Shown here: one piece after another, positions 9,410 through 45,906 of the stretch
How positions within the stretch are numbered: position 1 is the first letter of the stretch
Layout: each line of letters begins with the position of its first letter
Assembly: GCA_017479645.1 (NCBI GenBank)
Contig: JAFVBZ010000048.1
Span: 6,045 to 70,044 of the forward strand
Reading direction: 5' to 3'
DNA: 64,000 bases
Source of the DNA: Ruminiclostridium sp.
Lineage (GTDB): Bacteria > Bacillota > Clostridia > Oscillospirales > Ruminococcaceae
Program-made: the position numbers and the translations under genes
The notes under the pieces: generated by a model
Told to the model about the DNA's origin: nothing
The model's database searches: none
The model's input: the letters and a program-made list of their open reading frames with translations, nothing else

Positions 9410-9515
9410 TTCGGGGCTCTGCCCCGAACCCCGGCGGGAGAGGGAGGAAACCCTTTTTGAAAAAAGGGTTATCCTCCCCCTCCCTGCACCCTCCCTCTCT
9501 TTCCAAAAAACTTTG
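9410..9515. repeat. GC-rich REP-like palindromic intergenic element
   Basis: Hairpins TTCGGGGC-TCT-GCCCCGAA (9410-9428) and GGAGGAAACCCTTTTT/AAAAAGGGTTATCCTCC (9443-9477), then a C/T-rich tract. Confidence 0.6.
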
Positions 9516-9619
9516 ATCGCTTCGCGGTAAAGGGGGATAACAACAGCTGCAACACCGCAACAACATCTACGGCAACAATAAACACCGCCGAGTGCGCAAT
9601 GGCATTCAGCGGTGATTTT

Positions 9620-12139
9620 TTATCTTATTATTTCGTAGCCTTTGGCGGTTATCGCCTCTTCGATCTCGGGCAGGTGAACAAGTTCGCTGCTCAGATGCAG
9701 GACCGCCGTTCCCTTCTCGTGGCTGACATCGGCACTCTCCACTTCCGGAAAACTCTCCGCGCATTTGCGCACAGTCGCTTCACAATGCGGACACATCATT
9801 CCGCTTATATTTATGGTGTACGTTCGGTCTGTGACAATATCCGCGGTTATGCCGACGGATTCCGGGATTGCATTTTTGCGGGGTCTGTCGTGCTTTGTGG
9901 AATAGGGTCTGAACAGGTTGAGACGAAGTGCATTGGTCACTACGCAGAAACTTGAAAGGCTCATCGCCGCCGCGCCGAACATCGGGTCAAGCTCCCAGCC
10001 TGTCAGCGCGATGTAAACTCCCGCCGCAAGGGGAATGCCGATGATGTTGTAGATGAAAGCCCAGAAGAGATTCTGTTTTATATTGCGCAGTACCGCTCTG
10101 CTGAGCCGTATAGCCGCCGCTGCGTCGGAAAGGCTGCTCTTCATAAGCACAACGTCCGCCGCATCTATCGCAACGTCCGTTCCGGCTCCTATCGCTATTC
10201 CGATATCCGCACGGGTGAGCGCAGGCGCATCATTGATGCCGTCGCCGATCATAGCAACTTTTCCGTGCTTCTGCAAACTTCGGATAACTGCCTCTTTGCC
10301 GTCCGGCAGCACCCCGGCGATCACTTCGTCTATTCCTGCCTGCTTTCCGACAGCATCGGCTGTTCGCTTGTTGTCTCCGGTAAGCATAACGACACGGATA
10401 CCCATATTGCGGAGCTGTTTTACCGCTTCGGCGGAATCCGGCTTTATCGTGTCCGCCACAGCTATGATGCCGAGAAGTTTTCCGCCTTTGGCGAAATACA
10501 TCGGGGTCTTGCCGTTTCCGGCAAGCTCTTCGGCTTGTTTCCTTGCCTCATCGGATATTTCAGCAAAACCGGATATAAAGCCTGCATTTCCGCCGCATAC
10601 ATCTTCTCCGTCCAACACGGCTGTCAGCCCGCTGCCGGAATGCGCTTTGAATTCCGCCGCTTCATGGGCTGAAATGCCCTTACCGGAAGCATAGCGCATT
10701 ATCGCCTTCGCCAGCGGGTGCTCGCTTCTCGATTCGAGGGAAGCCGCTGTTTCAAGAAGTTCCTCCCCGCTTACGGACAAAGGCAGAACATCTGTGACCT
10801 CCGGCTCCCCGGCAGTTACAGTTCCTGTCTTGTCAAGAGCGGCTATCTGAACCTTGCCGGTCTCTTCGAGGGATACGGCGGTCTTGAAAAGTACGCCGTT
10901 CTTTGCGCCTACACCGCTGCCCACCATTATTGCGACAGGCGTGGCAAGTCCGAATGCGCAGGGACAGCTTATGACGAGCACCGAGACTGCTCTTGCAAGA
11001 GCGTAGGGGAAGGTCTGACCCACAAGGAGCCAGATGATAAGCGTAACGAGAGCGATGCCGATAACAGTCGGAACGAATATGCCGGAGACCTTATCGGCAG
11101 TCTTGGCTATCGGCGCTTTTGTGGCTGCGGCATCGCTCACGGTCTTTATGATCTTTGCTATCGCGGTATCTTCGCCTACCCGTACTGCCCGACAGCGCAG
11201 AAATCCGGATTGGTTTATAGTGGCTGCGGAAACGGAACTTCCCGGCTCCTTGTCCACAGGAATGCTCTCACCGGTAAGCGCCGATTCATTGACCGCGCTC
11301 TGTCCGTCAATAACTGTGCCGTCAACGGGAATGCTTTCACCGGGACGGACTGCGAAAATATCACCGATACGGACTTCCGATACGGGAACGGTGACCTCTT
11401 TTCCGTCACGTTCAAGCACAGCGGTATCGGGCGCAAGCTTCATCAGGCTTTTCAGCGCGTCGGTTGTCCTGCCCTTTGAGTAGGCTTCGATGGTCTTGCC
11501 GACAGTTATGAGCGTCAGTATCATCGCCGACGACTCGAACCACAGGTTCATCATATCGCTCATGACACGCTCATTGTCACCGTGAACTACCGCGTCGGTC
11601 ATGTCGAAAAGCATGAAAACACTCCATACAAACGAAACGCCGGAACCCATCGCAACGAGCGTATCCATATTCGGAGCGCCGTGCAGCGCGCCTTTGAATC
11701 CGCTTATGAAGAATTTACGGTTTATTATCATCACTGCCGCCGCAAGTATCATCTGTACCAGTGCCATGGCAGTGTGATTGCCGTCGAACCACTGTGGGAG
11801 CGGAAATCCCCACATCATGTGACCCATTGACACATACATCAGCGGCAGAAGTATGCACAGCGACGCAATAAGCCGCTTTTTAAGCGCAGGTGTCTCTCTG
11901 TCCTCAAGTTCGTCCGCGCCGGAAGCCTGCTTCCTTTCAGCGCCTTTGAGGGACGCGCCGTAGCCTGCGTCCTCGACAGCCTTTATTATATCCGCGGAAG
12001 AGGCGCTTCCCTCGACACCCATTGAGTTTGTGAGAAGGCTTACCGCGCATGAAGTCACTCCGGGAACGGAACCGACAGCTTTTTCGACTCTTGCGCTGCA
12101 AGCCGCACAGCTCATTCCGGTGATATTGTACTGTTCCAT
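9620..12139 (-). CDS. copA: Copper-translocating P1B-type ATPase
   Basis: N-terminal GMSCAAC and C-terminal GMMCPHC metal-binding domains, CPC motif, DKTGT phosphorylation site, [10 protein letters not shown] and MSLSS motifs. Confidence 0.93.
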
Positions 12140-29761: not shown

Positions 29762-30391
29762 TTATCGATGCCCCGTTCCTGCCCTGCTCAGATTCTGCCA
29801 CTCCGAAAGCGTTTCACTGACTTTCTCGTACCAGCCGTTTTCAAAAAATCGGCATTTTGTGATATCCTCGCCGCAGAAGTCCATGCGTTTCCCGGAGTAC
29901 AGCAAGCCCATAGCCCTGCAGCCGCCGGTGCAGTATTCAAACCATTTGCAGGAACCGCATTTGCTGTTGTTTGCGCGCACATCTCCTACTGTCGAACATA
30001 CATTATCGAGATATGCTCCCGATGACAGCAGGTCTTTAAGCCTGTCCCTGTGAAGATTTCCGAAATGTATGCCGAGCTGCATAAGCAGACCCGATTCCTG
30101 CATACACGGGACAATATCGCCGGAAGAAGTTACCGCTGCCATACCCCTGTTTCCTCTGCAGGCCGGATATGTACTGCGGTACTCTCCCTCGGAGCAGGCT
30201 GCGGGAACTATACTGAAGCTTCTGTTTTTGGGATAAAGCCGTAAAAACTGCCAGATGCCGATATCCATTTTCATACCGGTATGTATATACTCTTCCGCGA
30301 AGTCCAGCAGCTTCTCGTAGTACTCCTCAAATCCAAGGCATGCGTCCCCTGCATTCGCAAACCAGCGCGGCACTTCTGTATGAACACTCAT
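29762..30391 (-). pseudogene. 5'-truncated radical SAM/SPASM gene (SPASM half only)
   Basis: CRGNRG...SGDIVPC...CGSCKWFEYCTGGCR SPASM motif; no CxxxCxxC radical SAM core; ATG overlaps the upstream stop. Confidence 0.7.
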
Positions 30392-31047
30392 CAGCCCGCA
30401 ACAGTTCCCGCGGCTGTCAGAACTATCGCAAACAGCGAAAATCCTATACCGATAGAACCGCCGATCTTTAATCCGAGTCTTTGCAGCGGAACTAATACGA
30501 GCGCTGCGGTCACGGGATTGAGCAGCACCATTGCTGCCGGCACATTCAGAGCACCGGTGAGTATCGCCGCAATAACAAGTCCTGTCGATACTGCGATCAG
30601 ACTTACCGCGCTGATCAACGACGGTATCTTCGGGTACTTCCCTACCGCATCCAATGCGGTCTGTGCATCGTCGTCGGAGATCTTTCCGGCAAGCCTGCGA
30701 TAGACAATGCACTTTGTTACGATCGATCCGTGATAGTAAAGTCCGGTGTATGCACCTATGAATGTATTGATCTTAAGCGCAAGTGCAAGTCCGGTATTGT
30801 TCTGTCCGATGAGCTCCGCAAGAAACCACATCGTTAGATATGTTCCCGGCTGTCCTATGCAGGAAAGCCAGAAAGATCTGTCAAACCGGCTTTCCTTCAC
30901 TTCCGTCCACCACGGCGAGATCTTTCCGAGACTTCGTGGATCCGATCTGTCGCCCTTGCGTCCGGACCACACGAGCGGTATGTCTGCTCTTGCGCAGAGT
31001 ATCCCGCTTATAACGCCGATTATACCGATGATAATATATACGTTCAT
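30391..31047 (-). CDS. Polytopic membrane protein (DUF6796-like), paralog 1
   Basis: 218 aa; GVISGILCARAD and IGAYTGLYYH motifs shared with the other two paralogs. Confidence 0.75.
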   Translation of the reverse strand: MNVYIIIGIIGVISGILCARADIPLVWSGRKGDRSDPRSLGKISPWWTEVKESRFDRSFWLSCIGQPGTYLTMWFLAELIGQNNTGLALALKINTFIGAYTGLYYHGSIVTKCIVYRRLAGKISDDDAQTALDAVGKYPKIPSLISAVSLIAVSTGLVIAAILTGALNVPAAMVLLNPVTAALVLVPLQRLGLKIGGSIGIGFSLFAIVLTAAGTVAG

Positions 31048-31742
31048 TTTTCGACAGTCCCTTTCTTATGATAAAAATATGCGGTAAGGAATATCAGCCC
31101 TTCCCCGAGACTTTCACAAGCGCCGTAAGCCCCCTCGGCGGCAGTTCCCGCAAAGATCAGTTTCCACAGAATGCCGAGGGCGAATGCTCCCACAGGACCC
31201 ACAAGGCAGAGCCACCTCGGAAGCTTTGATCTTCCGGAAACCGTAACATAGAAATGCAGCACATAGCCTATACACAGAAAACCGATCAGGACTATGTTCG
31301 GCACAGTGACAAATTCAGACCAGCGCTGTGCGGCATTCGCGGCAAGCTCTGCCGTACCGCCTTCCGAAAGCACGGATCTATATGTCAGCGGCATAAGCGA
31401 ACCCAGCGAAAAATGCAGATACCCGGTAGATGCAACGCCGATGAGATACAGCGTTGCAAGCATCCTGCAGGCTTTTCCGCAGCTGTCCGCGATCATACGG
31501 TAAACGCTGATCCCGGCAGGCAGCATAAGCGCCATACCGATAAATCCGAGTATCGCAGAAAGTACGAACCGCCACTCCGGCATCTGCGCCCAAAGCGGCT
31601 GTACGCCAGATGCGCCGAGCCCTTCATAGCAGAAGATCAGACAGTCCCCGGTCATAAACAGCACTCCGCCGATCACTCCGAGAAGAGCGTATTTTTTCAG
31701 CTTTTGGGCTGTAAATTGCATCGGCATCACTTCATTATCCAT
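31044..31742 (-). CDS. Polytopic membrane protein (DUF6796-like), paralog 2
   Basis: 232 aa; GVIGGVLFMTGD and IGVASTGYLH. Confidence 0.8.
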   Translation of the reverse strand: MDNEVMPMQFTAQKLKKYALLGVIGGVLFMTGDCLIFCYEGLGASGVQPLWAQMPEWRFVLSAILGFIGMALMLPAGISVYRMIADSCGKACRMLATLYLIGVASTGYLHFSLGSLMPLTYRSVLSEGGTAELAANAAQRWSEFVTVPNIVLIGFLCIGYVLHFYVTVSGRSKLPRWLCLVGPVGAFALGILWKLIFAGTAAEGAYGACESLGEGLIFLTAYFYHKKGTVEK

Positions 31743-32638
31743 TCGATTATCTCCTTTTCCGCACGGGCAAAGTATTCAAGGTTCTCTTTCCGGTGCTTTC
31801 CGAAAGTCTTGTACATTATCCCGATAAGCGGCATTATCCGGTACAGCTTTTTCTCACGTTCCGGGTTCGGAAGCAGTCCGCACAGATGACTTCCGTGCGG
31901 AAATATCAGCGATTTTACTTCGTGCTCATATCCGATATTTTGCAGATGTTCTTCTGTCTTTCTGACGGAATAGACCGAGTTCCAGTCCTCGTCCTCCGCA
32001 CCGGCTATCATGAGTATGCGGGCATTCGTTTTTTCCGGGCGGAGCATTGCGCGCTGTTCCGCTTCCTTGTCGTCATAGGCTTTCTGAAAAGCCGCCCACA
32101 TTCCTGTGACCTTGTACTGCATACCGGGAATCTTTTTGTATTTTATGACCTTTTCCTTTGAGAAATCCGGACGCACGAACGGTATCTCCCTGCCCTGCCA
32201 TACCGCAACGCTGTGACCTGACATTGTCTTTTTGTCCGGCATCGTTCCCTCAAACGGAACGTGGGTGGGTGAGACAATAATAAGGTTCTCAAACCCTCCT
32301 ATGTACTGCGCAGTCAGAGATGCGAATATCGAGCCCATTGACTGACCGTAAACGCTGAGATGCCTGATGCCTTTTTTATTGCGCAGATATTCTACTGCCG
32401 GGACGAACATATCCACCGGAACTCTGTCGGGAGAATCCGGCAGTCCCTCCGCACCGAACAGCGAAACTGCCAGACCGGTAATACCGAAATCGGCAAACCT
32501 TTCCGCAAAAACTATTCCGGGCAGTAAGCTCTGCTCACCGCCCATTATCACGATAACAGCACGGTCACTGCCGTTATCCGGCTCGGCGAGATGCCCCACA
32601 AAGCCGTGCTCTTTCATATTGAAGTTTTCATGTTTCAT
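31727..32638 (-). CDS. BAAT/acyl-CoA thioesterase-like alpha/beta hydrolase (paralog of 19450-20367)
   Basis: GQSMGS, AGAEDEDW, HGSHL. Confidence 0.85.
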   Translation of the reverse strand: MKHENFNMKEHGFVGHLAEPDNGSDRAVIVIMGGEQSLLPGIVFAERFADFGITGLAVSLFGAEGLPDSPDRVPVDMFVPAVEYLRNKKGIRHLSVYGQSMGSIFASLTAQYIGGFENLIIVSPTHVPFEGTMPDKKTMSGHSVAVWQGREIPFVRPDFSKEKVIKYKKIPGMQYKVTGMWAAFQKAYDDKEAEQRAMLRPEKTNARILMIAGAEDEDWNSVYSVRKTEEHLQNIGYEHEVKSLIFPHGSHLCGLLPNPEREKKLYRIMPLIGIMYKTFGKHRKENLEYFARAEKEIIEWIMK

Positions 32639-32653: not shown

Positions 32654-33286
32654 TCAGATGCTCTTGCTTCTTTCCCACCCGTCGCCTGCGTCTGTGCTGT
32701 GTCTGATAAAGTCAAAATCACAGCAGTCTCCGCCCTGACAGAGTGTTTTTGTCCGCTTGAAATCCGTAAAAGGCAGTTCACCGAAATTAATAACGTCGGA
32801 ATGGCAGAACATGGCTCCCAGCTTCATAAGATCATGTTTTTCAAAGATATGGCGGTAAACGCACTCCCTGCACTCGAAATGGAATCTGTCCTTAGGGTCA
32901 TCGGAATGCCATTCGTAGTGCCAGCCTGCGCCGGAACCATGTCTGAATCCGAACGGGAGTATCTTCTTCATCATCGGAATGAAGAACGGGAGCTTCGCCA
33001 TTTTTTTATAGCTTTCCGGAGTGAGCATTTTCCACATCTCCTCCGATACTGTCCTGTATGCTTCTTCCTCACTTTTCCCGTGATCCTGCAAGACCTCGTA
33101 CAATGCAATGGAAGTGAATATCTGCGCCATGTGTTTGTAATTGCCCTTGTCGCAGTACTCCGAGTGTTCCATGATAAGTTCGTCAATTCTTTTGCAGATG
33201 TCCTGCTGTATATCGTCCGGCAGTGACGGGAAGTATTTGCGGTAGCGGCTTATTCCGATCAAAGCCATTGGTTCATACTTTTTCAT
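32654..33286 (-). CDS. L-2-amino-thiazoline-4-carboxylate hydrolase-family protein
   Basis: FECRECVY...FCHSD...FKRTKTLCQGGDCCDF C-terminal pattern. Confidence 0.8.
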   Translation of the reverse strand: MKKYEPMALIGISRYRKYFPSLPDDIQQDICKRIDELIMEHSEYCDKGNYKHMAQIFTSIALYEVLQDHGKSEEEAYRTVSEEMWKMLTPESYKKMAKLPFFIPMMKKILPFGFRHGSGAGWHYEWHSDDPKDRFHFECRECVYRHIFEKHDLMKLGAMFCHSDVINFGELPFTDFKRTKTLCQGGDCCDFDFIRHSTDAGDGWERSKSI

Positions 33287-33304
33287 TTATATCGCCTTGT
33301 TCGA

Positions 33305-33352
33305 GTTAGTTTTAACTAACTGCATTATAGCATAATTCCGCAAATAAATCAA
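33305..33352 (-). promoter_or_regulatory. Sigma-A promoter plus GTTAGY operator (copy 2)
   Basis: TTGATT-17-TATAAT, then 3 nt, then operator (GTTAGTTTTAACTAAC on + strand, 33305-33320). Confidence 0.8.
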
Positions 33353-33462
33353 GTACAATGTGAACCTATCCGATCATTTCTATATTATCCCGGAAGGAAG
33401 GCACGAATCATAATACATCTTTCATTCTGCTGTGTCACATCTGAAAATTTTTTCAAAACCTA

Positions 33463-33516
33463 TTGACAAATGTCGGTGAACGTTGTATACTTATACTCAT
33501 TGGTGAACAACGTTCA
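33463..33516 (+). promoter_or_regulatory. tetR promoter with two TGAAC-N3-GTTCA-type operators
   Basis: TTGACA-17-TATACT (33463-33491); TGAACAACGTTCA at 33504-33516; 11/13 copy at 33477-33489. Confidence 0.75.
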
Positions 33517-33559
33517 TTAAATATCTTTGTTCACAATTCCTGCTGAAAGGGGTCAGTTT

Positions 33560-34162
33560 ATGCCGAGAGATAAGACAAAAAGCCACGAAAGAATAATCGA
33601 GGCGGCAAAAAAGGAGTTCCTCGAATACGGCTATGCTGATGCTTCCCTGCGGCGGATCGCAGCGGATGCGGAAATACAGGTAGGCGGGCTGTATAAGCAT
33701 TTTGCCAGCAAGGACGAGATGTTTGAAACGCTTGTGGAGCCTGCGATACAGGAATTCTACGCTCTGTATCACGATATTGAGAATGAATATTTTGGTGATG
33801 CAAAAGCCTCTGCGTGGGAGCCGAAACGTGAAGTCACGCGCACTATGGAGCTTATCTACAGGCACTATGACGAGTTCCGGCTGCTTATACTTAGATCTAA
33901 GGGAACACGGTATGAGGACTTCAAGCATGAGGTAGCCCTGCTGGAGGAAAAAGCCACACTGCGCTATCTCGATGAACTGCGAAAACAAGGCTGTCCGGTC
34001 AAAGATGTGGACAGAACCGAATTTCACCTGATAACCACATCTTATGTGGAGGCTTTTTTCCAGCCGCTTATACACGGTCTTGACAAGGAAAAAGCCATGC
34101 ATTACACAAGAACTCTTGAAGAGTTTTACCAACCGGCATGGAAGTCGTGGTTAGGAATATGA
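33560..34162 (+). CDS. TetR/AcrR-family regulator
   Basis: IIEAAKKEFLEYGYADASLRRIAADAEIQVGGLYKHFASKDEMF HTH. Confidence 0.93.
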   Translation: MPRDKTKSHERIIEAAKKEFLEYGYADASLRRIAADAEIQVGGLYKHFASKDEMFETLVEPAIQEFYALYHDIENEYFGDAKASAWEPKREVTRTMELIYRHYDEFRLLILRSKGTRYEDFKHEVALLEEKATLRYLDELRKQGCPVKDVDRTEFHLITTSYVEAFFQPLIHGLDKEKAMHYTRTLEEFYQPAWKSWLGI

Positions 34163-34206
34163 AATAATGCCTCGCGATTGCAGCGGGGCATAAATAAAGA
34201 ACAAAA

Positions 34207-34222
34207 GTTAGCTTTAGCTAAC
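34207..34222. promoter_or_regulatory. GTTAGY operator (copy 3)
   Basis: GTTAGCTTTAGCTAAC, perfect 7-bp arms, 22 bp upstream of the ABC ATG. Confidence 0.8.
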
Positions 34223-34244
34223 AAAATAAACAGGAGGATTTCGT

Positions 34245-36035
34245 ATGGAGAAAAAGAAACAAAGTGCCGTGGGAGTCTTGCTCGGATATGCAGGAAACTA
34301 TAAGGGACTTACATTTTTGGGGCTGTTTTTGTCAGCTGTGTCAATGATACTTGGGATGCTGCCGTATATATGCATCTGGCTTGTTGTAAGAGATCTGATA
34401 GCAGTCGCACCAAATTGGAAAGAGGCAACCGATATCGCGGGATACGGCTGGCTGGCGTTTTTCTTTGCGGTAGGCGGAATAGCGGTATATTTCGCAGCGC
34501 TTATGTGTACGCATCTGGCAGCGTTCAGAACAGCGTCCAACATAAGAAAAAAGGGAATGGCGCATCTTATGAAGGCGCCATTGGGATTTTTTGACAGCAA
34601 TGCATCGGGTTTGCTTCGCAACAGACTTGACGGAGCGGCGACAGATACAGAGACACTGCTCGCACATAATCTTGCGGATATTGTTGGAACCGCAGCAATG
34701 TTTGTTATGATGCTGGTACTTATGTTTGTATTTGACTGGAGAATGGGGCTGTCGTGCCTTCTGGCTGCGATAATATCGATCATAGCCATGTTCTCCATGA
34801 TGGGCGGGAAAAACGCAGGTCTCATGGCAGAGTATCAGGCGGCTTTGGATACGATGAGCAAAGCGGGAACAGAGTATGTCAGGGGTATTCCCGTAGTAAA
34901 AGTATTTCAGCAGACAGTATATTCATTTAAAGCTTTCAAGCAGGCTATTGAGGATTACAGTGAAAAGGCGGAGCATTATCAGGCTGATGTATGCAAAGTG
35001 CCCCAAGCTGTAAACCTGACATTTACGGAAGGGGCATTTATATTCCTTGTTCCGGCAGTCCTTTTGCTTGCACCGTCGGCGTTAGACGGGGATTTTGCCG
35101 GTTTTGTCACTAATTTTGCATTTTATGCGGTTTTTTCCGCAATCGTCTCCACTGCGCTCGCAAAGATAATGTTTGCTGCAAGCGGAATGATGCTGGCTCA
35201 GACCGCCCTCGGAAGAATAGATCAGGTCATGAGTGCGCCTGTCCTTACGACAGCAAGCAGCCCCGAGACTCCCGAAGGAAACGGGATAGAATTCAAAGAT
35301 GTCAGCTTCACGTATGAAGGCAGTGAAAGTCCTGCGCTTTCCCATGTAAGCTTTAAGGCGGAGCCCGGTCAGACTGTGGCGCTTGTGGGACCGTCCGGCG
35401 GCGGAAAGACTACGGCGGCGAGCCTTATCCCGAGATTCTGGGACGTATCGGACGGAAGCGTACTTGTCGGCGGAGTGGACGTAAAGAAAATTGATCCGCA
35501 TGTCCTCATGGAAAGAATAGCCTTTGTATTTCAGAATAACAGGCTGTTCAAAACTACTGTCCTGGAAAATGTCCGTGCCGCAAGACCCGATGCAAGTGAA
35601 GCGGAAGTTATGGAGGCGCTCAGAGCGGCACAGTGTATGGATATCATAGATAAACTTCCGGAAGGGATCCATACAAAGATCGGTACAGAGGGAACATATC
35701 TGTCGGGCGGTGAGCAGCAGAGAATTTCCCTTGCACGCGCCATTTTAAAAGATGCACCGATCGTTGTTCTCGATGAAGCCACAGCTTTTGCCGATCCCGA
35801 AAATGAAGCATTGATACAGAAAGCCTTTACCACTCTCACCAAGGGACGAACGGTGATAATGATCGCTCATCGTCTTTCCACTGTCGTGAATGCGGATAAG
35901 ATCATTGTTTTGAATAACGGACAAGTTGAAGAAGTCGGTACACATAGCGAGCTGTTAAATAATAAGGGTCTGTATGATCGTATGTGGAACGATTATAACA
36001 AGGCTGCTCAATGGAAGTTAGGAGGGAATGTATAA
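34245..36035 (+). CDS. Fused TMD-NBD ABC half-transporter (YbtP/IrtA-like, no reductase domain)
   Basis: THLAAF, EYVRGIPVVKVF, GPSGGGKT, LSGGEQQR, LDEAT. Confidence 0.9.
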   Translation: MEKKKQSAVGVLLGYAGNYKGLTFLGLFLSAVSMILGMLPYICIWLVVRDLIAVAPNWKEATDIAGYGWLAFFFAVGGIAVYFAALMCTHLAAFRTASNIRKKGMAHLMKAPLGFFDSNASGLLRNRLDGAATDTETLLAHNLADIVGTAAMFVMMLVLMFVFDWRMGLSCLLAAIISIIAMFSMMGGKNAGLMAEYQAALDTMSKAGTEYVRGIPVVKVFQQTVYSFKAFKQAIEDYSEKAEHYQADVCKVPQAVNLTFTEGAFIFLVPAVLLLAPSALDGDFAGFVTNFAFYAVFSAIVSTALAKIMFAASGMMLAQTALGRIDQVMSAPVLTTASSPETPEGNGIEFKDVSFTYEGSESPALSHVSFKAEPGQTVALVGPSGGGKTTAASLIPRFWDVSDGSVLVGGVDVKKIDPHVLMERIAFVFQNNRLFKTTVLENVRAARPDASEAEVMEALRAAQCMDIIDKLPEGIHTKIGTEGTYLSGGEQQRISLARAILKDAPIVVLDEATAFADPENEALIQKAFTTLTKGRTVIMIAHRLSTVVNADKIIVLNNGQVEEVGTHSELLNNKGLYDRMWNDYNKAAQWKLGGNV

Positions 36036-37777
36036 TGTTCGGCGAAAAATTTAAACATAAATATGCATTGTCTGATACAGGAATAAAAAATGTCAAAAAA
36101 GGCACCTTCTGGACTGTGATCGTAAATCTTGTCGTCATGGGCGGTATGGGAATACTATACTTTCTGATGATGGGATTTATGAAAACTCTTACAGACGGAG
36201 AACAATTACCGGGGATAGGTTTATTCCTTGTTCTTGTAGCCGTTTTTCTTATTCTCTCTCTTATTACCCATATCCAGCAGTATAAAGCTACATACGGACT
36301 TGTGTACGGAGAAGTGAAAAAGGTGCGGCTAAAGATCGCTGAGCATTTAAGAAAACTGCCTTTGGGATACTTCGGCAAAAGGGATCTCGCAGATCTTACC
36401 GAGACCGTTATGGGTGATGTAAACCGCCTTGAGCATGTCTGGTCTCACTGTCTTGGGTATTTATACGGCTCCTATATATCTACGGCTGTCATAGCAATAG
36501 GTCTGTTCATATACGACTGGCGTCTTGCACTTGCCTGCCTCTGGGGCGTTCCGGTAGCTTTCGGACTGTTATTCGGAAGCAGAAAGCTTGCAAAAAAACA
36601 ATCCGAGATCACCAAAAAGGCATCAGTAGTCGTATCGGACGGAATACAGGAAACACTTGAAAATATCCGTGAGATCAGAGCCACAAACCAGGAAGAAAAG
36701 TATCTGTCGGAACTGTATGAAAAGATCGATTCACATGAGAAGGCCCTTAAAACAGGAGAACTTACAACCGGTATCTTTGTAAATGCTGCAAGCGTGATAA
36801 TGAGACTTGGTGTCGCTACAACGATCCTTACCGGTGCAGAACTGATACTTTCGGGAAGCATTGATTTTATGCTGTTCTTCATGTTCCTGCTCGTTATTAC
36901 CCGCGTTTACGCGCCATTTGACCAGAGCCTTGCGCTTATTGCCGAGATGTTTGTGTCTCAGGTGTCGGCAAACAGACTCAACGAAATATATGATGCCGAA
37001 ACAGCAGAAGGAACGGAAAGCTTTTCACCCGACGGGCATGATATCGTGTTTAAGAACGTGGGCTTCAAGTATGATGAAGAAACAGTGCTTAAAGGCGTAA
37101 GCTTTACAGCAAAAGAAGGCGAGGTAACGGCGCTTGTCGGTCCTTCGGGATCGGGAAAGAGTACCTGTGCAAGACTCGCGGCAAGACTGTGGGATGTAAG
37201 CGAGGGCGCTATCGAAGTCGGAGGAGTGGATATATCCACTGTTGATCCGGAAGTGCTTCTTACGGATTATTCCTTTGTATTCCAGGATGTAGTCCTTTTC
37301 GATGATACTGTTATGGAAAACATACGTCTCGGAAAGCACGGGGCAACAGATGAAGAGGTAATAACTGCTGCAAGAGCGGCAAACTGCGAGGAATTTGTCG
37401 AAAAGCTTCCCGACGGATACAATACTTCTATCGGAGAAAACGGTGCAAAGCTCTCCGGCGGAGAAAGGCAGAGGATCTCAATTGCGAGGGCTTTGCTTAA
37501 GAATGCGCCTATTGTTCTTCTTGATGAGGCAACAGCTTCACTTGATGTTGAGAATGAAACAAAGGTACAGGGAGCATTGTCGCGCCTTCTCGCCGGAAAG
37601 ACTGTACTTGTTATCGCACATCGCATGCGCACGGTAGAGGCTGCGGACAAGATCGTCGTTCTTACGGACGGCGCGGTGGCAGAGGAAGGAAGACCTGAGG
37701 AACTTCTTGCCGGAGAGAACAGCATATTCAGACGTATGGCGGGACTCCAGTCGGAAAACTATGGTTGGAGCGTGTGA
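36035..37777 (+). CDS. Fused TMD-NBD ABC half-transporter (YbtQ/IrtB-like)
   Basis: HLRKLPLGYFGKRDLADLT, GPSGSGKS, LSGGERQR; TAATG overlap with its partner. Confidence 0.9.
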   Translation: MFGEKFKHKYALSDTGIKNVKKGTFWTVIVNLVVMGGMGILYFLMMGFMKTLTDGEQLPGIGLFLVLVAVFLILSLITHIQQYKATYGLVYGEVKKVRLKIAEHLRKLPLGYFGKRDLADLTETVMGDVNRLEHVWSHCLGYLYGSYISTAVIAIGLFIYDWRLALACLWGVPVAFGLLFGSRKLAKKQSEITKKASVVVSDGIQETLENIREIRATNQEEKYLSELYEKIDSHEKALKTGELTTGIFVNAASVIMRLGVATTILTGAELILSGSIDFMLFFMFLLVITRVYAPFDQSLALIAEMFVSQVSANRLNEIYDAETAEGTESFSPDGHDIVFKNVGFKYDEETVLKGVSFTAKEGEVTALVGPSGSGKSTCARLAARLWDVSEGAIEVGGVDISTVDPEVLLTDYSFVFQDVVLFDDTVMENIRLGKHGATDEEVITAARAANCEEFVEKLPDGYNTSIGENGAKLSGGERQRISIARALLKNAPIVLLDEATASLDVENETKVQGALSRLLAGKTVLVIAHRMRTVEAADKIVVLTDGAVAEEGRPEELLAGENSIFRRMAGLQSENYGWSV

Positions 37778-38133: not shown

Positions 38134-39564
38134 GTGAAACGTCTCTTAATTATTGGTGTTTCTGCTTTATTGACTGTAATGATGTGCGTCGGTTTCTTTG
38201 ATTGTAAAACTTTCGCATATAACGATATATTACAGGACGATGATATATATGAAAGGATAGACGAGTATCTGCGTTCATCTGCCGTAAACGCCCATATTCC
38301 TGCGCTTACAGCAGCTATCGCAAACAGCGATGAGATACTGTTCGCAAAAGCCTACGGGGAATGTGAAAGCTGTGATGATCCTTTTGTTCTCGGGTCGGTC
38401 AGCAAATCATTTACAGCGGTATGTATCATGAGGCTTGCCGAGCAAGGGAAAATAAGGCTGAATGACCGCATTTCGGTTTATCTGAAAGATATTGCCGACG
38501 GAGACCGTATAACGGTAAACCAGCTTCTCAATCATACAAGCGGTCTCGGCGAGCATCAGAACCTTGAAAACTGCCATATCGTCAACGAGCAGGGAGTGCA
38601 TTGTTATGCCAATGTGAACTACTCATTGCTTGGAAAAATAATCGAGCAGGTCACAGGGATGTCCTTTGAGGAATATGTTACCGGGAGTATTATTGAACCA
38701 TTGGAACTTGCAAATACTGCCGCTTCATATGAAAAAAGCACCGCGAACGGTCTGATAGACGGGCATACCGATTACTGGGGATTTTCTGTAAAAAGCAGCC
38801 CCAAATATCCTGTGTCTGACAACGCATGGATAACTGTCCCTGCCGGATATATATCGTCATCGGCAAATGACCTTGCACGGTATCTGCAAATGTATTTGCG
38901 CGGCGGTGAGGGTATCATTTCACAGCAGAGCATAGATACTATGTTCTATGAGGATACCGTTTTTGTTGACGACGATGTTCCGTTCTGGTACGGATACGGC
39001 TGGGCAACTGTAAAAGAACCGCTGCCGGAACCGGTTCTCCGTCACAGCGGGTTGGTGGAAACGGGAACATCCTGTGTATTTATTATTCCCGGGAAGGATA
39101 TCGCCGTTGCTTTTACCGCAAATGTCAACGACTATTTTGTCACCAACGAAATGATGGACAGCCTCGGCTGGGGAGTAATACTTATGCTTCTCGGTGAAGA
39201 GCCGAATATGATATCCCGGGACGCATATATTCTTGAACACTTAAGGATAGATCTTATAATGCTTGCTGTTTTTGCGGCATCGCTGATACCGATGTTCTTT
39301 ATCGCCGGATATAAAAAGCGCGTCAGTCAGAAGCATTTCATATCGGCTGCTGCAAGTATGCTGATCGTCAATATTATATTCCCGGTGTTTATACTTCTGA
39401 TCGTGCCGGTTTTCTTCAAGACGCCCCTATGGGTCGCAAAAGCATTCGTGCCAGATGTGTTTATAACGGCTGTAGTTTCATCTGCTGTATTGTTCGCCGG
39501 CGGAATAGTTAAGGCGGCAATACTGATCAAAGCCATAATCAAGCGGTCAGGATCTGACATATAG
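38134..39564 (+). CDS. Beta-lactamase-family serine hydrolase with signal peptide and C-terminal TM helices
   Basis: SxxK (SVSK), LLNHTSGL, YAN, HSG; promoter TTGCAA-17-TATAAT. Confidence 0.85.
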   Translation: MKRLLIIGVSALLTVMMCVGFFDCKTFAYNDILQDDDIYERIDEYLRSSAVNAHIPALTAAIANSDEILFAKAYGECESCDDPFVLGSVSKSFTAVCIMRLAEQGKIRLNDRISVYLKDIADGDRITVNQLLNHTSGLGEHQNLENCHIVNEQGVHCYANVNYSLLGKIIEQVTGMSFEEYVTGSIIEPLELANTAASYEKSTANGLIDGHTDYWGFSVKSSPKYPVSDNAWITVPAGYISSSANDLARYLQMYLRGGEGIISQQSIDTMFYEDTVFVDDDVPFWYGYGWATVKEPLPEPVLRHSGLVETGTSCVFIIPGKDIAVAFTANVNDYFVTNEMMDSLGWGVILMLLGEEPNMISRDAYILEHLRIDLIMLAVFAASLIPMFFIAGYKKRVSQKHFISAAASMLIVNIIFPVFILLIVPVFFKTPLWVAKAFVPDVFITAVVSSAVLFAGGIVKAAILIKAIIKRSGSDI

Positions 39565-40388: not shown

Positions 40389-41168
40389 TCAGTCTTTCTG
40401 CTTTATCTCAACGCACTTTTCAAACTCCCCGAACCATTTCTCCGGATAGAAGAACAGCAGCTCCTCATGTCCATAATCCTGCTCTCTGATGTCGGGAGAA
40501 GCAAAATGCTTCAGATAACGTTCCCTATATTTCTCGCCCATTTTAAGCGCATAAAAAATGTGGACTGTGGTATTTTCGGCTGAGATATGCTCGCCGAGCG
40601 GAGTCACAAGGTCGGAGAAGAACTGATTTTTCAAGCTTGTCTTTGAAACAGCCTTCGCTGACCCGAACATTCCGTTTGTCATCTGCAAGTATTTCTCCGT
40701 GGCTTCATCACCCATTTTCTTCCGGGTCATATTCTCCGCCCATTTCGGCATAGTACCCTTCTGCACCATTCCATAAAACACTTTGCCGACAATGGCTGTC
40801 TGAAGCTTTGCAGACAGCTTTCCGCTCTGATCGAGATCGGAGCTTCCGATGATCGCGTGGCTGATATGCACATTTCCGCGCTCAACGAGCAGACCCGCAA
40901 AACTGCCGCCGAGAGACGAACCGTAAAGCGCAAACACCTCTCCCCCACAGCGTTTGGTGATGTAGCTCTCGATCTTACGGCAGATGTAGGTCATGTTAGT
41001 GAAATCACCCTCATTGCCGTCAAATCCGTCGTAGTCAACGCATATCACCTTGTATTTTTCCGCAAGCATCGGCACGACTTTTTCAAAATTTAATTTTGCC
41101 GTGCAGCAGGTTCCCGGCAGCAGCATTACGATCTTTTCGTTATCTTTTCCCGCAATAGTGTATCTCAT
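40389..41168 (-). CDS. Alpha/beta hydrolase
   Basis: LLPG, YGSSLGG nucleophile elbow, GHEE. Confidence 0.85.
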   Translation of the reverse strand: MRYTIAGKDNEKIVMLLPGTCCTAKLNFEKVVPMLAEKYKVICVDYDGFDGNEGDFTNMTYICRKIESYITKRCGGEVFALYGSSLGGSFAGLLVERGNVHISHAIIGSSDLDQSGKLSAKLQTAIVGKVFYGMVQKGTMPKWAENMTRKKMGDEATEKYLQMTNGMFGSAKAVSKTSLKNQFFSDLVTPLGEHISAENTTVHIFYALKMGEKYRERYLKHFASPDIREQDYGHEELLFFYPEKWFGEFEKCVEIKQKD

Positions 41169-41178: not shown

Positions 41179-41532
41179 CTATTTCTTCACGGCTCTGAAA
41201 TAGACCATTGAGCCTCTGATATGCCAGTTTGTGACTTCGTATGCACTCTCAAGGCGCTTCATCAGCATACCCGATGTATCGAACGGCGGCGTGAACCAGC
41301 CCTTTCGTGCAAGCACATTCTTTACAAGCGCATCGGTTACTTTCGATCGACCTTTGATGTAAAAACAGGCGACAAGCTTCCCGCCTTTTTTCAGCACCCG
41401 TGTCATCTCGGAGAATGCCCTGTCCTTGTCGGGGAAAGCATGAAAGCCGTTCATACTCAATACCGTGTCGAAGGTGCAGTCCCCGAACGGCAATTCCCCC
41501 ACATCACCCTGCATGAAAGTAATGTTGTTTAT
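41179..41532 (-). pseudogene. Class I SAM methyltransferase, N-terminal half missing
   Basis: INNITFMQGDVGELPF...FDTVLSMNGFHAFPD...RVLKKGG; no motif I (DxxxGxG). Confidence 0.75.
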
Positions 41533-41577: not shown

Positions 41578-42270
41578 TCATGCACTTCCCTTCTTTGTTT
41601 TCAGTTCATACACGAGCATCACCGCAAACCAGATGATCATGCTTTCGCTCATCAGACCGTTGTTGAATGCAAGTCTGAATGCGCCGTCCGGCATGAACAG
41701 CGTTATGCCTTTAAGCAGTCCGAAAAATATCAGCACATTCGTAAATGCAAAAGGTTTCGGGAAAGCGGTAAAACCCCGCACCTGCAAATAAAACCAGTAC
41801 ACGAACACCGGAAGCATGAATGCTTCGCTTGCGGCTATCACCCACGATGTGTTCTCGTACAACAGCAAACATATCGCTCTGATATCGTGCAGATCATAGC
41901 CGAAGTCCGGGCTCTGCGAAAGTCCGCTGTAAAGCACAAGTATCATTATGTAGTAAAGGTGCAGCGCCAGCCACGGCGTAAGACCGAAAGCATTCAGATA
42001 GTGATACACTTTCCGGCGCTTTTCATCTGTGATATAATTCTGCACCGCGAACAGCGCAATACCATAAAGAATTATACCCGGAAAAGCAAGCGCCATTGCG
42101 AGCGTGAACCTCCACTGTGGGATCTGCGCGGTTCCTGTTGTGAGCCAGTTCAGCATATAAACAGTATCATATTCCCCGCCGCCGTACATCATCAGCCAGT
42201 CACCCGTGCCGAAACACAGACAGCCGAGCATTCCGCAGATCAGCGCCGCGGCTGTTTTCTTACTTGTCAT
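41578..42270 (-). CDS. Polytopic membrane protein (DUF6796-like), paralog 3
   Basis: 230 aa; GMLGCLCFGTGD and FGLTPWLALH. Confidence 0.8.
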   Translation of the reverse strand: MTSKKTAAALICGMLGCLCFGTGDWLMMYGGGEYDTVYMLNWLTTGTAQIPQWRFTLAMALAFPGIILYGIALFAVQNYITDEKRRKVYHYLNAFGLTPWLALHLYYIMILVLYSGLSQSPDFGYDLHDIRAICLLLYENTSWVIAASEAFMLPVFVYWFYLQVRGFTAFPKPFAFTNVLIFFGLLKGITLFMPDGAFRLAFNNGLMSESMIIWFAVMLVYELKTKKGSA

Positions 42271-43234
42271 ATATCTTATGCACCTCTTCCCAATCCGGCA
42301 TCGCAGCTCTCATTCCGTCCCACACCGGCATTCTGTATTCCGGTGCGGCATCGCGCAGCTTGTTGAACTCACGGTCAAGGTACTCCATTTCGGTCACGGC
42401 ATTCCTGCAATGGTCGGTGGCCGCCAGCTCCCCAACAAAGGTTTTTGCCATTGCACGAAGCGCCAGATTGGTTGCTGTCATTTTAGCTCCGCTCTCAAAG
42501 TATGTCTCATCTCCGGCAGGACATATCTTTATCCCCGCTCTTTTTATCAGACCGTAGGCTTCCTTTGCTGCAGCGGTGATATTGTTCACCTCCTGCTTTG
42601 ATGCTGTACGAAGGTTACAGCCCCGCTTGTAGCTCAGATAAACTATCGGCAGAATAAATGCGGCATGGCAGTACAGCCAGCCCTCCATGTCGTCCATGAA
42701 CCCGATTCCGTATTTCGAGCCGGAAAGCGCTGTCCGCAGCGCAGTTTCGTCCCGTGTGGACGGGAGAGTATGCAGCCCGCCGACAACAAGCCTGCTGCTG
42801 CCCCACCTTACACAGATCGTGTGATTGCCCTCGCGCACGCCGCCGGTACCCTGAAATCCGAACAGCAGGGTCTTGTCATCACCCGCAAGACGGTGAAATT
42901 CACGCTCGGTATCTGCTGCGCAAAGATTATTTCCCACAAGCACAAACAGTGGAGCGTTCACCTTGGCGATCACCGGCAGGAGCGCAGTCTGCTGCTGTCC
43001 CTGCATTATCGAAAACACGATGTCATAGCGTTCGTTTTCGTCCGCTTTCCCAATGACTTTCGGACGGTCGATCGTTTTCTTTTTTTGCAGCTTATGCTTT
43101 ATGCGAAGCCCGTATTTTCCCAGTATTTTTCGTGTTCTTCCCCGTGCGCAGACAGTCACGTCATTTCCCGCACGACACAGAACGTGTGTCAGATATGAGC
43201 CTATGACTCCGCAGCCGTAAACAAGAATCTTCAT
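42260..43234 (-). CDS. Ketopantoate reductase-family oxidoreductase
   Basis: VYGCGVIGS Rossmann motif, ARG, WLYCHAAF. Confidence 0.85.
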   Translation of the reverse strand: MKILVYGCGVIGSYLTHVLCRAGNDVTVCARGRTRKILGKYGLRIKHKLQKKKTIDRPKVIGKADENERYDIVFSIMQGQQQTALLPVIAKVNAPLFVLVGNNLCAADTEREFHRLAGDDKTLLFGFQGTGGVREGNHTICVRWGSSRLVVGGLHTLPSTRDETALRTALSGSKYGIGFMDDMEGWLYCHAAFILPIVYLSYKRGCNLRTASKQEVNNITAAAKEAYGLIKRAGIKICPAGDETYFESGAKMTATNLALRAMAKTFVGELAATDHCRNAVTEMEYLDREFNKLRDAAPEYRMPVWDGMRAAMPDWEEVHKIYDK

Positions 43235-43251: not shown

Positions 43252-43303
43252 GTTAGCTCCAGCTAACTTTATTTATAATAGCACATTGCCATCTCTTTGT
43301 CAA
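43252..43303 (-). promoter_or_regulatory. Sigma-A promoter plus GTTAGY operator (copy 4)
   Basis: TTGACA-17-TATTAT on the minus strand, then GTTAGCTCCAGCTAAC (43252-43267). Confidence 0.8.
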
Positions 43304-43529: not shown

Positions 43530-43590
43530 TTGACTTTTTTACAAAGCTGTGTATAACAGAGCGGAGTTAGCCTCAGCTAACACAAGGAGG
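43530..43590 (+). promoter_or_regulatory. Orphan promoter, GTTAGY operator (copy 5) and RBS with no following ORF
   Basis: TTGACT-16-TATAAC (43530-43557), GTTAGCCTCAGCTAAC (43566-43581), AAGGAGG (43584-43590), no start codon at RBS distance. Confidence 0.7.
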
Positions 43591-43599
43591 CGCGAGAAC

Positions 43600-44841: not shown

Positions 44842-45906
44842 ATGAAAGGTACATTTTTTAAAACAGCAGCAGCTTCTCTTGCACTTATAACAACAATATT
44901 CGCGGCAGCATCATGCGCGAACGCGTCGGCATCAAACGCAGCGGAGACATCGGGTACTGCATCGGAAGCAGGAAAGAATTACTCGATCATTAACGTTTCC
45001 TACGACCCGACCCGCGAGCTTTATGCCGCGTATAACGAAGCTTTCAAAAAGCACTGGGAGTCCGAACATGATTCCACGGTTGAGATAACCCAGTCCCACG
45101 GCGGTTCCGGAAAGCAGGCTCTTGAAGTAGCGAACGGCAACCCCGCAGATGTAGTGACCCTTGCGCTCGAATATGATGTTAAGGCAGTCGAGGACGCGGG
45201 GCTTATCGAGCCCGGCTGGGTAAGCGAGTTCCCGCTTGACAGCTCGCCCTACACTTCAACTATCGTTTTCCTTGTAAGAAAGGGCAATCCGAAGAACATT
45301 CTCGACTGGGGCGACCTTGCCCGTGACGATGTAGGCATCATCACTCCGAACCCCAAGACCTCCGGCGGTGCTCGCTGGAACCACCTTGCGGCATGGGCAT
45401 GGGCACAGCGCGAATACAACAACGATGAGACAAAGGTGCTTGACTACATCAAGACGCTCTACTCCCACGTTCTTGTACTCGATTCGGGCGCACGCGGTGC
45501 AACCAACTCCTTCGTTGAGAACAAGCAGGGCGATGTGCTCCTTGCATGGGAGAACGAAGCTTTCCTCTCTCTGAAAGAATATCCGGACGAATATGAGATA
45601 GTTACTCCGAGCATCAGCATACTCGCACAGCCTTCCGTTGCTATTGTCGATAAAGTTGTTGACAAGAACGGCACACGCGAAGTTGCGACCGAGTATCTCA
45701 ACTACCTCTACTCCGAGGAAGCTCAGAGAATTGCGGGCGAGAACTTCTACCGTCCGTCCAATGAAACGGTGCTCGCGGAATTCTCCGACACCTTCGACCT
45801 TAACATAAACCTCGTAACCATCAACGATTTCGGCGGTTGGGACGAAGCGTTTGCAAAACACTTCGCCGACGGCGGACTGTTCGACCAGATCTACGAACAG
45901 GATTGA
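44842..45906 (+). CDS. sbp: Sulfate ABC transporter substrate-binding lipoprotein
   Basis: NVSYDPTRELY, SHGGSGKQ, PYTSTIVFLVRKGNPK, NPKTSGGARWN, WENEA. Confidence 0.95.
   Translation: MKGTFFKTAAASLALITTIFAAASCANASASNAAETSGTASEAGKNYSIINVSYDPTRELYAAYNEAFKKHWESEHDSTVEITQSHGGSGKQALEVANGNPADVVTLALEYDVKAVEDAGLIEPGWVSEFPLDSSPYTSTIVFLVRKGNPKNILDWGDLARDDVGIITPNPKTSGGARWNHLAAWAWAQREYNNDETKVLDYIKTLYSHVLVLDSGARGATNSFVENKQGDVLLAWENEAFLSLKEYPDEYEIVTPSISILAQPSVAIVDKVVDKNGTREVATEYLNYLYSEEAQRIAGENFYRPSNETVLAEFSDTFDLNINLVTINDFGGWDEAFAKHFADGGLFDQIYEQD

Follow-up and report, generated by a model that had tools for sequence, protein, structure and literature searches.

Gene organization around the ABC transporter pair

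The window analysed here is a stretch of 64,000 nucleotides from a Ruminiclostridium species (assembly GCA_017479645.1, contig JAFVBZ010000048.1, positions 6,045 to 70,044). It was found that two fused ATP-binding cassette (ABC) half-transporters, ABC1 and ABC2, follow a TetR-family gene on the plus strand, while a minus-strand operon diverges from them. The operon consists of four intact genes in the order ATC_hydrolase-family (ATC, 2-amino-thiazoline-4-carboxylate), BAAT_C-type hydrolase, DUF6796, and DUF6796, and is followed by a C-terminal SPASM fragment. A 16-bp palindrome, GTTAGY-N4-RCTAAC, hereafter called motif B, lies upstream of both the ATC_hydrolase-like gene and ABC1. It will be argued that motif B is very probably a metal box and that the transporter pair may be a pump for an iron chelate. 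The genes were called from a listing of open reading frames (ORFs) together with Pfam and NCBIfam scans. The features are as follows.

34245-36035, plus strand: ABC1, fused transmembrane domain-nucleotide-binding domain (TMD-NBD) half-transporter, 596 aa, YbtP-type; ABC_membrane and ABC_tran
36035-37777, plus strand: ABC2, fused TMD-NBD half-transporter, 580 aa from the ATG at 36035; ABC_membrane and ABC_tran
33560-34162, plus strand: TetR-family regulator, 200 aa; PF00440, E 3.3e-13
32654-33286, minus strand: ATC_hydrolase-family protein, 210 aa, gene 1 of the operon; PF14196, E 9.9e-18, 143 of 145 profile positions
31727-32638, minus strand: BAAT_C-type alpha/beta hydrolase, 303 aa; PF08840, E 8.8e-12, and a weak PF00756 esterase match
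31044-31742, minus strand: DUF6796 membrane protein, 232 aa; PF20599, E 4.9e-43
30391-31047, minus strand: DUF6796 membrane protein, 218 aa, last intact gene of the operon; PF20599, E 1.7e-22
33352-33324, minus strand: promoter of the hydrolase operon, TTGATT-17-TATAAT
33305-33320: motif B copy 1, GTTAGTTTTAACTAAC, 3 nt after TATAAT and 18 nt before the ATG of the ATC_hydrolase-family gene
34207-34222: motif B copy 2, GTTAGCTTTAGCTAAC, 22 nt before the ATG of ABC1, within the 82-bp tetR-ABC1 gap

The ABC2 ORF opens at 36011 (588 aa), and the ATG at 36035 overlaps the stop codon of ABC1 as TAATG. The latter is probably the true start codon, as it would give an N-terminal MFGEKF as in the relatives. 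From 29.7 to 44.8 kb, the G+C content is 47.0%, compared with 50.2% and 53.4% in the flanking DNA. The SPASM fragment (29762-30390, minus strand) directly follows the second DUF6796 gene, lacks a radical-SAM core, and is probably a gene remnant.

A first-pass annotation, made from the sequence alone, had described the two half-transporters, the divergent ATC_hydrolase-family gene, and the same operator before both, and all of these are present. It had overlooked the TetR gene, the rest of the hydrolase operon, the lack of a recognisable promoter between tetR and ABC1, and two more operator copies at 43252 and 43566. Its statement that the window has neither a biosynthetic non-ribosomal peptide synthetase (NRPS) nor a substrate-binding protein holds; no ORF of the window is longer than 839 aa, and the only binding protein (44842-45906) belongs to a sulfate transporter.

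Relationship of the pair to YbtPQ and IrtAB

In ABC1 and ABC2 alike, the motifs of the ATPase (Walker A, Q-loop, signature, Walker B-Glu, and H-loop) are all canonical, as are both ATP sites. Against the half-transporter sequences of the Protein Data Bank (PDB), ABC1 scores best with YbtP (313 bits; 36% identity over residues 81-594), followed by IrtA (272), YbtQ (258), and MsbA (257), while ABC2 scores best with YbtQ (267 bits), followed by YbtP (248), TM288 (247), Sav1866 (242), and IrtB (234). A maximum-likelihood tree of 29 proteins was made from all 16 ABC_membrane proteins of the genome, the references MsbA, MdlA/B, CydC/D, and YbtP/Q (Escherichia coli Nissle 1917), and the homologous pairs of a related locus (L001), Clostridium butyricum, and Prevotella nigrescens. 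In what follows, C40, C69, C113, C174, C189, and C196 are contigs of the same genome outside the window, and L001 to L118 are loci of relatives. The window pair and its homologues fall into a single clade with YbtP/YbtQ and a protein of C40 (ultrafast bootstrap 99, SH-like approximate likelihood ratio test (SH-aLRT) 99), in which the ABC1-type proteins group with YbtP (97/96). The pair lies apart from the 13 other exporter-type ABC proteins of the genome and from MsbA, MdlAB, and CydCD. Trees of the ATPase domains only and of the membrane domains only agree on the clade, with a support of 98 and 86, respectively.

In this limited sample, the pair thus appears to belong to the YbtPQ/IrtAB lineage. 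The first-pass annotation had called it YbtPQ/IrtAB-like and had suggested a phylogeny as the check. Its grouping with YbtP/YbtQ stands, in a tree that holds no IrtAB, while the likeness needs a qualification. The identity to YbtP/Q is 45-49% in the ATPase domains and 15-18.5% in the membrane domains, and therefore the likeness is mainly that of the ATPase domain. The membrane domain of ABC1 alone finds IrtA as its best PDB match (47.5 bits over the whole domain). Pfam shows only ABC domains in ABC1 (596 aa) and in the 588-aa ABC2 ORF, with no FAD-type siderophore-interaction domain in either.

The C40 protein is a third ABC half-transporter of 621 aa (C40:43-1908, on a contig of about 2 kb) inside the YbtP clade. 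It retains a Trp-Tyr pair (LDWYKVS) aligned with W243-Y244 of YbtP.

Motif B and its predicted repressor

In the window, motif B has eight strand-matches against 1.06 expected, a number reached in none of 100 shuffles. Three of the four sites lie 3-7 nt after a -10 element. The whole genome has 14 GTTAG-N6-CTAAC sites versus one for the reversed control. The two copies beyond the pump are located as follows.

43252-43267: motif B copy 3, GTTAGCTCCAGCTAAC, 7 nt downstream of TTGACA-17-TATTAT (43303-43275, minus strand), preceding an operon that starts with an ApbA-like gene
43530-43599, plus strand: motif B copy 4 (43566-43581), together with an orphan promoter and a ribosome-binding site that no gene follows (interruption by a hairpin element)

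No motif B accompanies the separate promoter (TTGCAA-17-TATAAT) of the gene at 38134-39564 (plus strand), whose product combines a beta-lactamase fold (PF00144) with a C-terminal membrane region of several helices.

Is motif B common in relatives, and which genes follow it? In 87 related loci (1.3 Mb), 134 sites were found versus none for the reversed control, and 140 unique sites give the consensus R-GTTAG-Y-N4-R-CTAAC-Y. In IdeR, two CCTAA repeats are contacted by each dimer, and the consensus for a single dimer is TTAGGNNNNCCTAA (PMC8464063). Motif B, read as TTAG[C/T]-N4-[G/A]CTAA, has the half-site and the spacing of the single-dimer IdeR site and departs from it in the fifth base alone. 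A gene was accepted as the first one behind a box only if it had a ribosome-binding site, and representatives were scanned against Pfam. The ABC pair comprises the first genes behind 44 sites. The motif also heads FeoA-FeoB operons (L069, L081, and L106), DtxR-family repressor genes (Fe_dep_repress and Fe_dep_repr_C; in one case with a fused NEAT-like region), flavodoxin genes, HMA-domain protein genes, and a gene for a PEMT/ICMT-like membrane methyltransferase. DUF3793 is a recurrent first gene (eight sites in six loci). In L004/L005, two tandem boxes head a co-directional gene run (2678-9978), which opens with genes for an Shr-HID-like secreted protein and a ferric-reductase/FMN-binding membrane protein; further along come those for a methyltransferase and a BAAT_C hydrolase, and finally an ATC_hydrolase gene and two DUF6796 genes. 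This ATC_hydrolase gene is the closest relative of that in the window (85% identity).

In the genome under study, the gene of an FTR1-type iron permease (553 aa) faces a divergent ZIP transporter gene across two boxes, at 2067 and 2159 (C113:358-3176). This permease carries two motifs of the REGLE type as well as a secreted domain at its N-terminus and a TM2 domain at its C-terminus. Another site (C69:363-2027) combines a consensus promoter and motif B with a leader of about 220 nt and an operon of DUF2325-like, DUF3793, and flavodoxin genes. The genome has one DtxR-family gene (C174:18104-18475; PF01325, 41 bits). Its product carries a Met in GEMYLETI and Cys-x2-Glu-His in DACRIEH, which I take to be the primary site of an iron-type repressor (DtxR/IdeR as opposed to MntR).

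Motif B and control sites were also counted in an independent class-wide sample of 61 genomes, divided by the presence of a homologue of this repressor. The 44 genomes with a homologue have 125 motif B sites versus 81 control sites, and the 17 genomes without it have 7 versus 29. Thus, motif B tracks the repressor (Fisher p 6e-6, or 1.9e-5 excluding the genome under study), in a test that ignores relatedness and base composition. In six genomes of this sample, the box lies 57-195 nt upstream of a dtxR-like gene.

Motif B is thus very probably a DtxR-type metal box, as predicted from its geometry and targets, and the metal sensed is likely iron. Since a motif with the IdeR geometry heads feoAB, FTR1, ZIP, flavodoxin, and dtxR genes, the link to metal acquisition is firmer than a reader of the window alone could have known.

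Other natures of motif B were considered. An RNA hairpin was rejected because it is the sequence and not the pairing that is conserved; GTTAG and CTAAC never vary, yet the bases at positions 6 and 11 are often unable to pair (GTTAGG...GCTAAC and GTTAGA...GCTAAC). An integron attC-like site was rejected because the GTTRRRY/RYYYAAC cores are in the wrong order and spacing. As for Fur control, the window has no match to a Fur box within three mismatches.

A box in L006 (4380-4420) is the centre of a perfect palindrome with 12-bp arms, CTATTGGTTAGC-AGAT-GCTAACCAATAG, and heads a long array adjoining integrase, MobC, and ParB genes. It seems that accessory arrays also travel on mobile elements.

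The TetR gene and its promoter

No recognisable promoter was detected in the tetR-ABC1 gap, and thus the pump is probably transcribed from the strong tetR promoter. This promoter (TTGACA-17-TATACT at 33463-33491, plus strand) is of the consensus type and carries motif A, which is distinct from motif B and consists of three copies of a GTGAACA/TGTTCAC-type repeat: GGTGAACGTTGT at 33475-33486, GGTGAACAACGTTCA at 33502-33516, and TGTTCAC at 33528-33534. The AGAGAACAACGTTC part of motif A also precedes a paralogous TetR gene on C189, a contig that shares the GGTGAACAACGTTCA-type repeats with the window; behind this TetR gene lie a motif-B box and a small ORF.

Among the best 80 relatives of the pump, about 20 have a TetR gene directly upstream, and this slot is occupied by two unrelated TetR subtypes. 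The promoters of type-2 tetR genes carry another palindrome, with ATAACAnTGTTA-type repeats. Since the tetR promoters bear palindromes of their own (motif A or ATAACAnTGTTA), it is unlikely that TetR would be the binder of motif B.

Relatives of the pump and their variable neighbours

A scan of species-representative genomes found at least 487 relatives of ABC1. The best 80 of them are 76-82% identical and come mostly from rumen and gut, in bins of Lachnospiraceae, Oscillospiraceae/Ruminococcus, Erysipelotrichaceae, Mogibacterium, Eggerthellaceae, Anaerolineae, and others, that is, from several phyla. The unit of box and pump is also carried by cultured strains, among them Butyrivibrio sp. INlla14, Ruminococcus sp. 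YE282, Erysipelotrichaceae bacterium NK3D112, Mediterraneibacter hominis NSJ-55, and Hydrogeniiclostridium mannosilyticum. Loci were compared with query proteins from the window and from L001. The upstream sequence was long enough in 77 loci. In 43 of these, an exact box is found no more than 260 bp before ABC1, usually at a distance of 20-50 nt from the start codon; many of the others show a near-variant box or contain the pump as part of a longer operon.

The genes around the pump are variable. They encode class I S-adenosylmethionine (SAM) methyltransferases (some membrane-anchored), alpha/beta hydrolases and metallo-beta-lactamase (MBL)-fold hydrolases, ApbA-like and aldo-keto reductases, DUF6796 proteins, three unnamed membrane families of 163-170 aa, Trep_Strep/MptD-like proteins, and ATC_hydrolase paralogues. 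The set differs even between near-identical contigs (L001 and L002). In several relatives, a methyltransferase, alpha/beta-hydrolase, or MBL-fold gene lies 4-19 nt after ABC2. On the other side of the pump, a gene for a Trep_Strep (MptD-type) membrane protein lies 17-45 nt before it in L060, L078, and L082, a DUF6796 gene overlaps or abuts ABC1 in L089, L100, and L101, and a flavodoxin gene overlaps ABC1 in L115. Trep_Strep proteins are annotated elsewhere as putative S components of energy-coupling factor (ECF) transporters.

Similar accessory genes constitute the second box-headed operon of the window, as follows.

42260-43234, minus strand: ApbA/ketopantoate-reductase-like oxidoreductase, 324 aa, gene 1 of the operon; PF02558, E 1.7e-11
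41578-42270, minus strand: third DUF6796 membrane protein, 230 aa; PF20599, E 3.1e-22
41179-41514, minus strand: class I SAM methyltransferase, N-terminally truncated, 111-aa remnant; Methyltransf_11 positions 48-94 of 95 only
40389-41168, minus strand: alpha/beta hydrolase, 259 aa, last gene of the operon; domain scan

The truncated methyltransferase looks like a deletion remnant inside the operon, and the hydrolase type of the last gene recurs beside the pump in relatives.

The DUF6796 protein encoded at 31044-31742 has an Asp33 and a His110 that are invariant in the alignment of the paralogues. Its AlphaFold (AF2) model (pLDDT 80) has no significant fold match in the PDB (best E 0.15, generic helical bundles), and an ECF S-component identity was thus neither supported nor refuted. 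A literature search for DUF6796 yielded no mention.

A more distant homologue of the pump in C. butyricum (L117, NZ_CP073278.1, 197259-201823; 47% identity) has the gene order ZIP, ABC, ABC, AraC. At 26 nt upstream of the first ABC gene's ATG there is a Fur-like box, GATAATGATAATCTATATA (0.03 expected by chance), and a Fur-family-like palindrome precedes the ZIP gene. This suggests a different metal sensor on the same target. The operon adjoins a fragment annotated as a biliverdin-producing haem oxygenase.

The ATC_hydrolase-like protein

The ATC_hydrolase-like protein matches PF14196 with 65.8 bits (cut-off 28.1), as do all of 24 aligned orthologues and paralogues. In this alignment, C142, C161, D164, R178, and C189 are invariant (a Cys3-Asp cluster). 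The AF2 model (pLDDT 88, pTM 0.86) finds its best PDB folds in H-NOX (E 8e-4, TM 0.37-0.41), in the phenol-sensing V4R-type domains of MopR, PoxR, and DmpR, in Bet3, and in a V4R protein. In Pfam, the PF14196 proteins have no V4R or H-NOX match even at E values up to 5. With these low scores, an H-NOX/V4R-like ligand-binding fold is only a lead. The Cys3-Asp cluster recalls the zinc site of MopR. The protein is probably a Cys3-Asp metal-containing protein that binds or processes a ligand and not a thiazoline hydrolase. The family name reportedly rests on one Pseudomonas enzyme and is probably misleading for these proteins.

The gene is not a fixed partner of the pump. Only about eight of the 80 related loci have an ATC_hydrolase gene no more than 10 kb away from the pump, and in L001-L003 it is in the same operon. 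Elsewhere, the paralogues are found in long arrays with methyltransferases and membrane proteins, which vary even between near-identical contigs; among the loci compared, no siderophore genes lie alongside. The second ATC_hydrolase gene of the genome, a paralogue of 210 aa (C196:6268-7520), shows translational coupling with a TetR gene of its own, as the stop codon of one overlaps the start codon of the other. No N-carbamoyl-cysteine amidohydrolase partner was noticed among the neighbours, where no systematic search was made for one. The literature on the family is almost absent, with passing mentions only; in one proteomics study, a Clostridioides difficile member was raised 11-fold in a MATE-pump mutant (PMC13435710).

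Possible function of the pump and alternative explanations

The substrate and the direction of the pump are not readable from its sequence. Given the box and its targets, the pump probably serves metal acquisition in some way. That it is an importer is a weaker proposition, at somewhat below even chances. In much the same tentative sense, I favour the reading that the genes from 30.4 to 43.6 kb are part of an iron-limitation regulon whose exporter-fold pump takes up an iron chelate. The genes look like a widespread, uncharacterised iron-starvation set of rumen and gut Clostridia and not like a dedicated pathway for the breakdown of thiazoline siderophores. Uptake is favoured because the characterised relatives of the pump import, because the pump is co-regulated with uptake systems, and because no biosynthetic core genes are nearby. 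The first-pass annotation had proposed import of a metallophore; the metal part of this proposal is supported by the DtxR-type box.

The regulon might work as follows. Motif B would be the operator of the small DtxR/IdeR-family repressor encoded on C174. An Fe2+-loaded dimer would occupy sites at, or immediately behind, the promoters that drive the ATC_hydrolase and ApbA-like operons, and a dimer in the tetR-ABC1 gap would act as a roadblock to transcription arriving from the tetR promoter. The pump would then be made when iron is low and would also need the ligand of TetR, being transcribed from a TetR-controlled promoter with motif A, in the manner of an AND gate. It would function as a type-IV heterodimer with two canonical ATP sites that imports an iron chelate without a binding protein. 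A foreign siderophore, haem, or a plant-phenolic-iron complex may be the cargo. The ATC_hydrolase-like protein, esterases, methyltransferases, reductase, and small membrane proteins would be interchangeable accessory genes of the regulon.

Several observations weigh against this reading. Most type-IV ABC proteins export, and TetR-pump pairs are typical of efflux. The tree lacks IrtAB, PchHI, and characterised Gram-positive exporters, a gap that the PDB scores fill only partly, and the support for the clade from the membrane domains alone is weak (SH-aLRT 86, with long branches). The membrane domain of ABC2 alone matches the exporters ComA and BmrD best. The residues of YbtPQ that contact yersiniabactin-Fe are R185, W243, Y244, and F255 of YbtP and Y92 and Y141 of YbtQ (PMC7002159); none of these six is kept in the window pair, where the alignment is uncertain at such low identity of the membrane domains. 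The homologue in Prevotella nigrescens (L118, NZ_CP082843.1, 364042-373016; 45% identity) belongs to a TetR-ABC-ABC-MMPL-LolA-like-DUF1302 cluster, a gene context that looks like one of export. On the regulatory side, the dtxR-like gene of the genome itself is preceded by a half-site only, the 61-genome test has the limits given above, and motif B lies at +1 of some type-1 tetR promoters (L072 and L105), which TetR autoregulation would fit equally. Finally, the role of so many methyltransferases and esterases in iron uptake is unexplained. As a separate observation, the Prevotella cluster adjoins mobB, a mobile context.

Much of this evidence would suit a pump that works in the opposite direction under the same iron box, exporting a chelator, a reductant, or a modified plant phenolic, or recycling an emptied chelator, with the methyltransferases, esterases, MBL-fold hydrolases, and reductases as tailoring enzymes. 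The predominant use of the fold, the Prevotella cluster, the nearness of the ABC2 membrane domain to ComA and BmrD, and the enzyme genes that closely follow ABC2 all agree with it. However, no NRPS, polyketide synthase, or NRPS-independent siderophore (NIS) synthetase gene is present in the window or was seen among the compared neighbours in related loci, which were not screened systematically, and the variation between L001 and L002 is unlike a fixed pathway. The nearest characterised relatives of the pump are importers, and the C. butyricum pump is co-transcribed with a ZIP importer. I therefore consider such export unlikely. An alternative without iron is that motif B is a TetR operator and that a lipophilic toxin, by releasing TetR, induces both a multidrug-type pump and modifying enzymes, with the iron genes behind the motif being coincidental or secondary. 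It could account for the TetR genes directly before the pump (including that of Prevotella), for motif B at +1 of tetR promoters, for the TetR-ATC_hydrolase operon on C196, and for a cross-phylum spread at 76-82% identity, which resembles that of a resistance determinant; moreover, YbtPQ itself lowers antimicrobial susceptibility (PMC7876324). It is nevertheless distinctly improbable, since the same box follows TetR genes of two unrelated subtypes with different promoter palindromes, and since feoAB, FTR1, ZIP, flavodoxin, and dtxR operons stand behind the box without a TetR gene nearby and the box tracks the DtxR-like gene across the 61 genomes. The pump also stands apart from the 13 exporter-type paralogues and has two canonical ATP sites, whereas the usual heterodimeric drug pumps of Firmicutes have one degenerate site.

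The first-pass annotation had gone further and inferred the import of a foreign heterocyclic metallophore, followed by ring opening and amide or ester hydrolysis. In its specific form, a thiazoline-containing siderophore of the yersiniabactin or pyochelin type would be imported, its ring would be opened by the ATC_hydrolase-like enzyme, and an ester or amide would be cleaved by the BAAT_C hydrolase. The YbtPQ clade, the PF14196 match, and the common iron-type box are compatible with this scheme, but the lack of conservation of the six contact residues, the divergence of the membrane domains, the rarity of the ATC_hydrolase-like gene beside the pump, the resemblance of its model to H-NOX/V4R ligand-binding domains, and the location of its paralogues in arrays without siderophore genes make it highly improbable. 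Nothing was found in support of thiazoline, bile-acid, or ring-opening chemistry, and this part of the annotation is unsupported.

Uptake of an iron chelate, the reading favoured here, could be elaborated into a modular machine, in which one ABC1/ABC2 motor would be common to interchangeable small membrane proteins and gated by two signals. The DUF6796, Trep_Strep/MptD-like, and 163-170-aa proteins would capture different iron chelates like ECF S components; both low iron (release of the roadblock) and substrate (release of TetR) would be required; and the esterases, methyltransferases, and ATC_hydrolase-like proteins would process the chelates, for example, tannin-iron or catechol-iron in the rumen. 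This elaboration is a long shot.

How strict anaerobes of gut and rumen acquire iron is poorly known, and exporter-fold ABC importers have so far been studied in a few pathogens only. Here, a YbtPQ/IrtAB-related pump is found in hundreds of genomes and tied by a 16-bp box to feoAB, FTR1, ZIP, and flavodoxin genes. The proposed regulon supplies a predicted regulator and operator, and the DUF6796, DUF3793, ATC_hydrolase-like, and unnamed membrane families gain a testable setting, namely, iron limitation.

Comparison with known systems

YbtPQ of Yersinia and uropathogenic E. coli consists of the same tandem fused TMD-NBD halves of type IV, with two canonical ATP sites and no binding protein, and is metal-regulated, as is predicted for the window pair from its box. 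It differs in being controlled by Fur and the AraC-type YbtA, instead of a DtxR-type box and TetR. The window pair also has no biosynthetic island and no outer-membrane receptor, and its host is a Gram-positive anaerobe. IrtAB, the IdeR-repressed mycobactin importer of mycobacteria, is the same kind of exporter-fold heterodimer behind a box of the DtxR/IdeR family or another metal sensor. However, IrtA has an N-terminal FAD-binding siderophore-interaction domain, which is absent from ABC1, and the IrtAB operator is a 19-bp double site, whereas motif B is a 16-bp single-dimer site with C/T replacing G at the fifth base. The IrtAB-like MptABC of Mycobacterium avium subsp. paratuberculosis is regulated by another metal sensor, Zur (PMC4298942). 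It is an example of how pumps of this kind may be located beside MptD-type membrane proteins in islands under metal control; MptD-like genes also directly precede the pump in L060, L078, and L082.

TetR-controlled heterodimeric multidrug exporters of Firmicutes share the adjacent TetR gene with the window pump, which differs from them in having no degenerate ATP site and in not grouping with the exporter-type paralogues of its genome. The ATC_hydrolase-like protein shares an above-cut-off Pfam match with AtcB, the L-ATC hydrolase of Pseudomonas that founded PF14196, while its gene context is one of arrays of methyltransferases and membrane proteins under predicted iron control.

The regulon as a whole resembles the DtxR/IdeR iron regulons in the TTAG-N6-CTAA geometry at or just after the -10 element, in targets such as iron uptake and flavodoxin, and in the Met/Cys/Glu/His ligands of the repressor. 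The repressor differs in having two domains and about 123-141 aa, without the SH3-like third domain, and one dimer would bind per site. Several of the sites are intergenic (tetR-box-ABC1) and would work there as roadblocks, and most members belong to families of unknown function, namely, DUF6796, DUF3793, the ATC_hydrolase-like proteins, and the membrane proteins of 163-170 aa.

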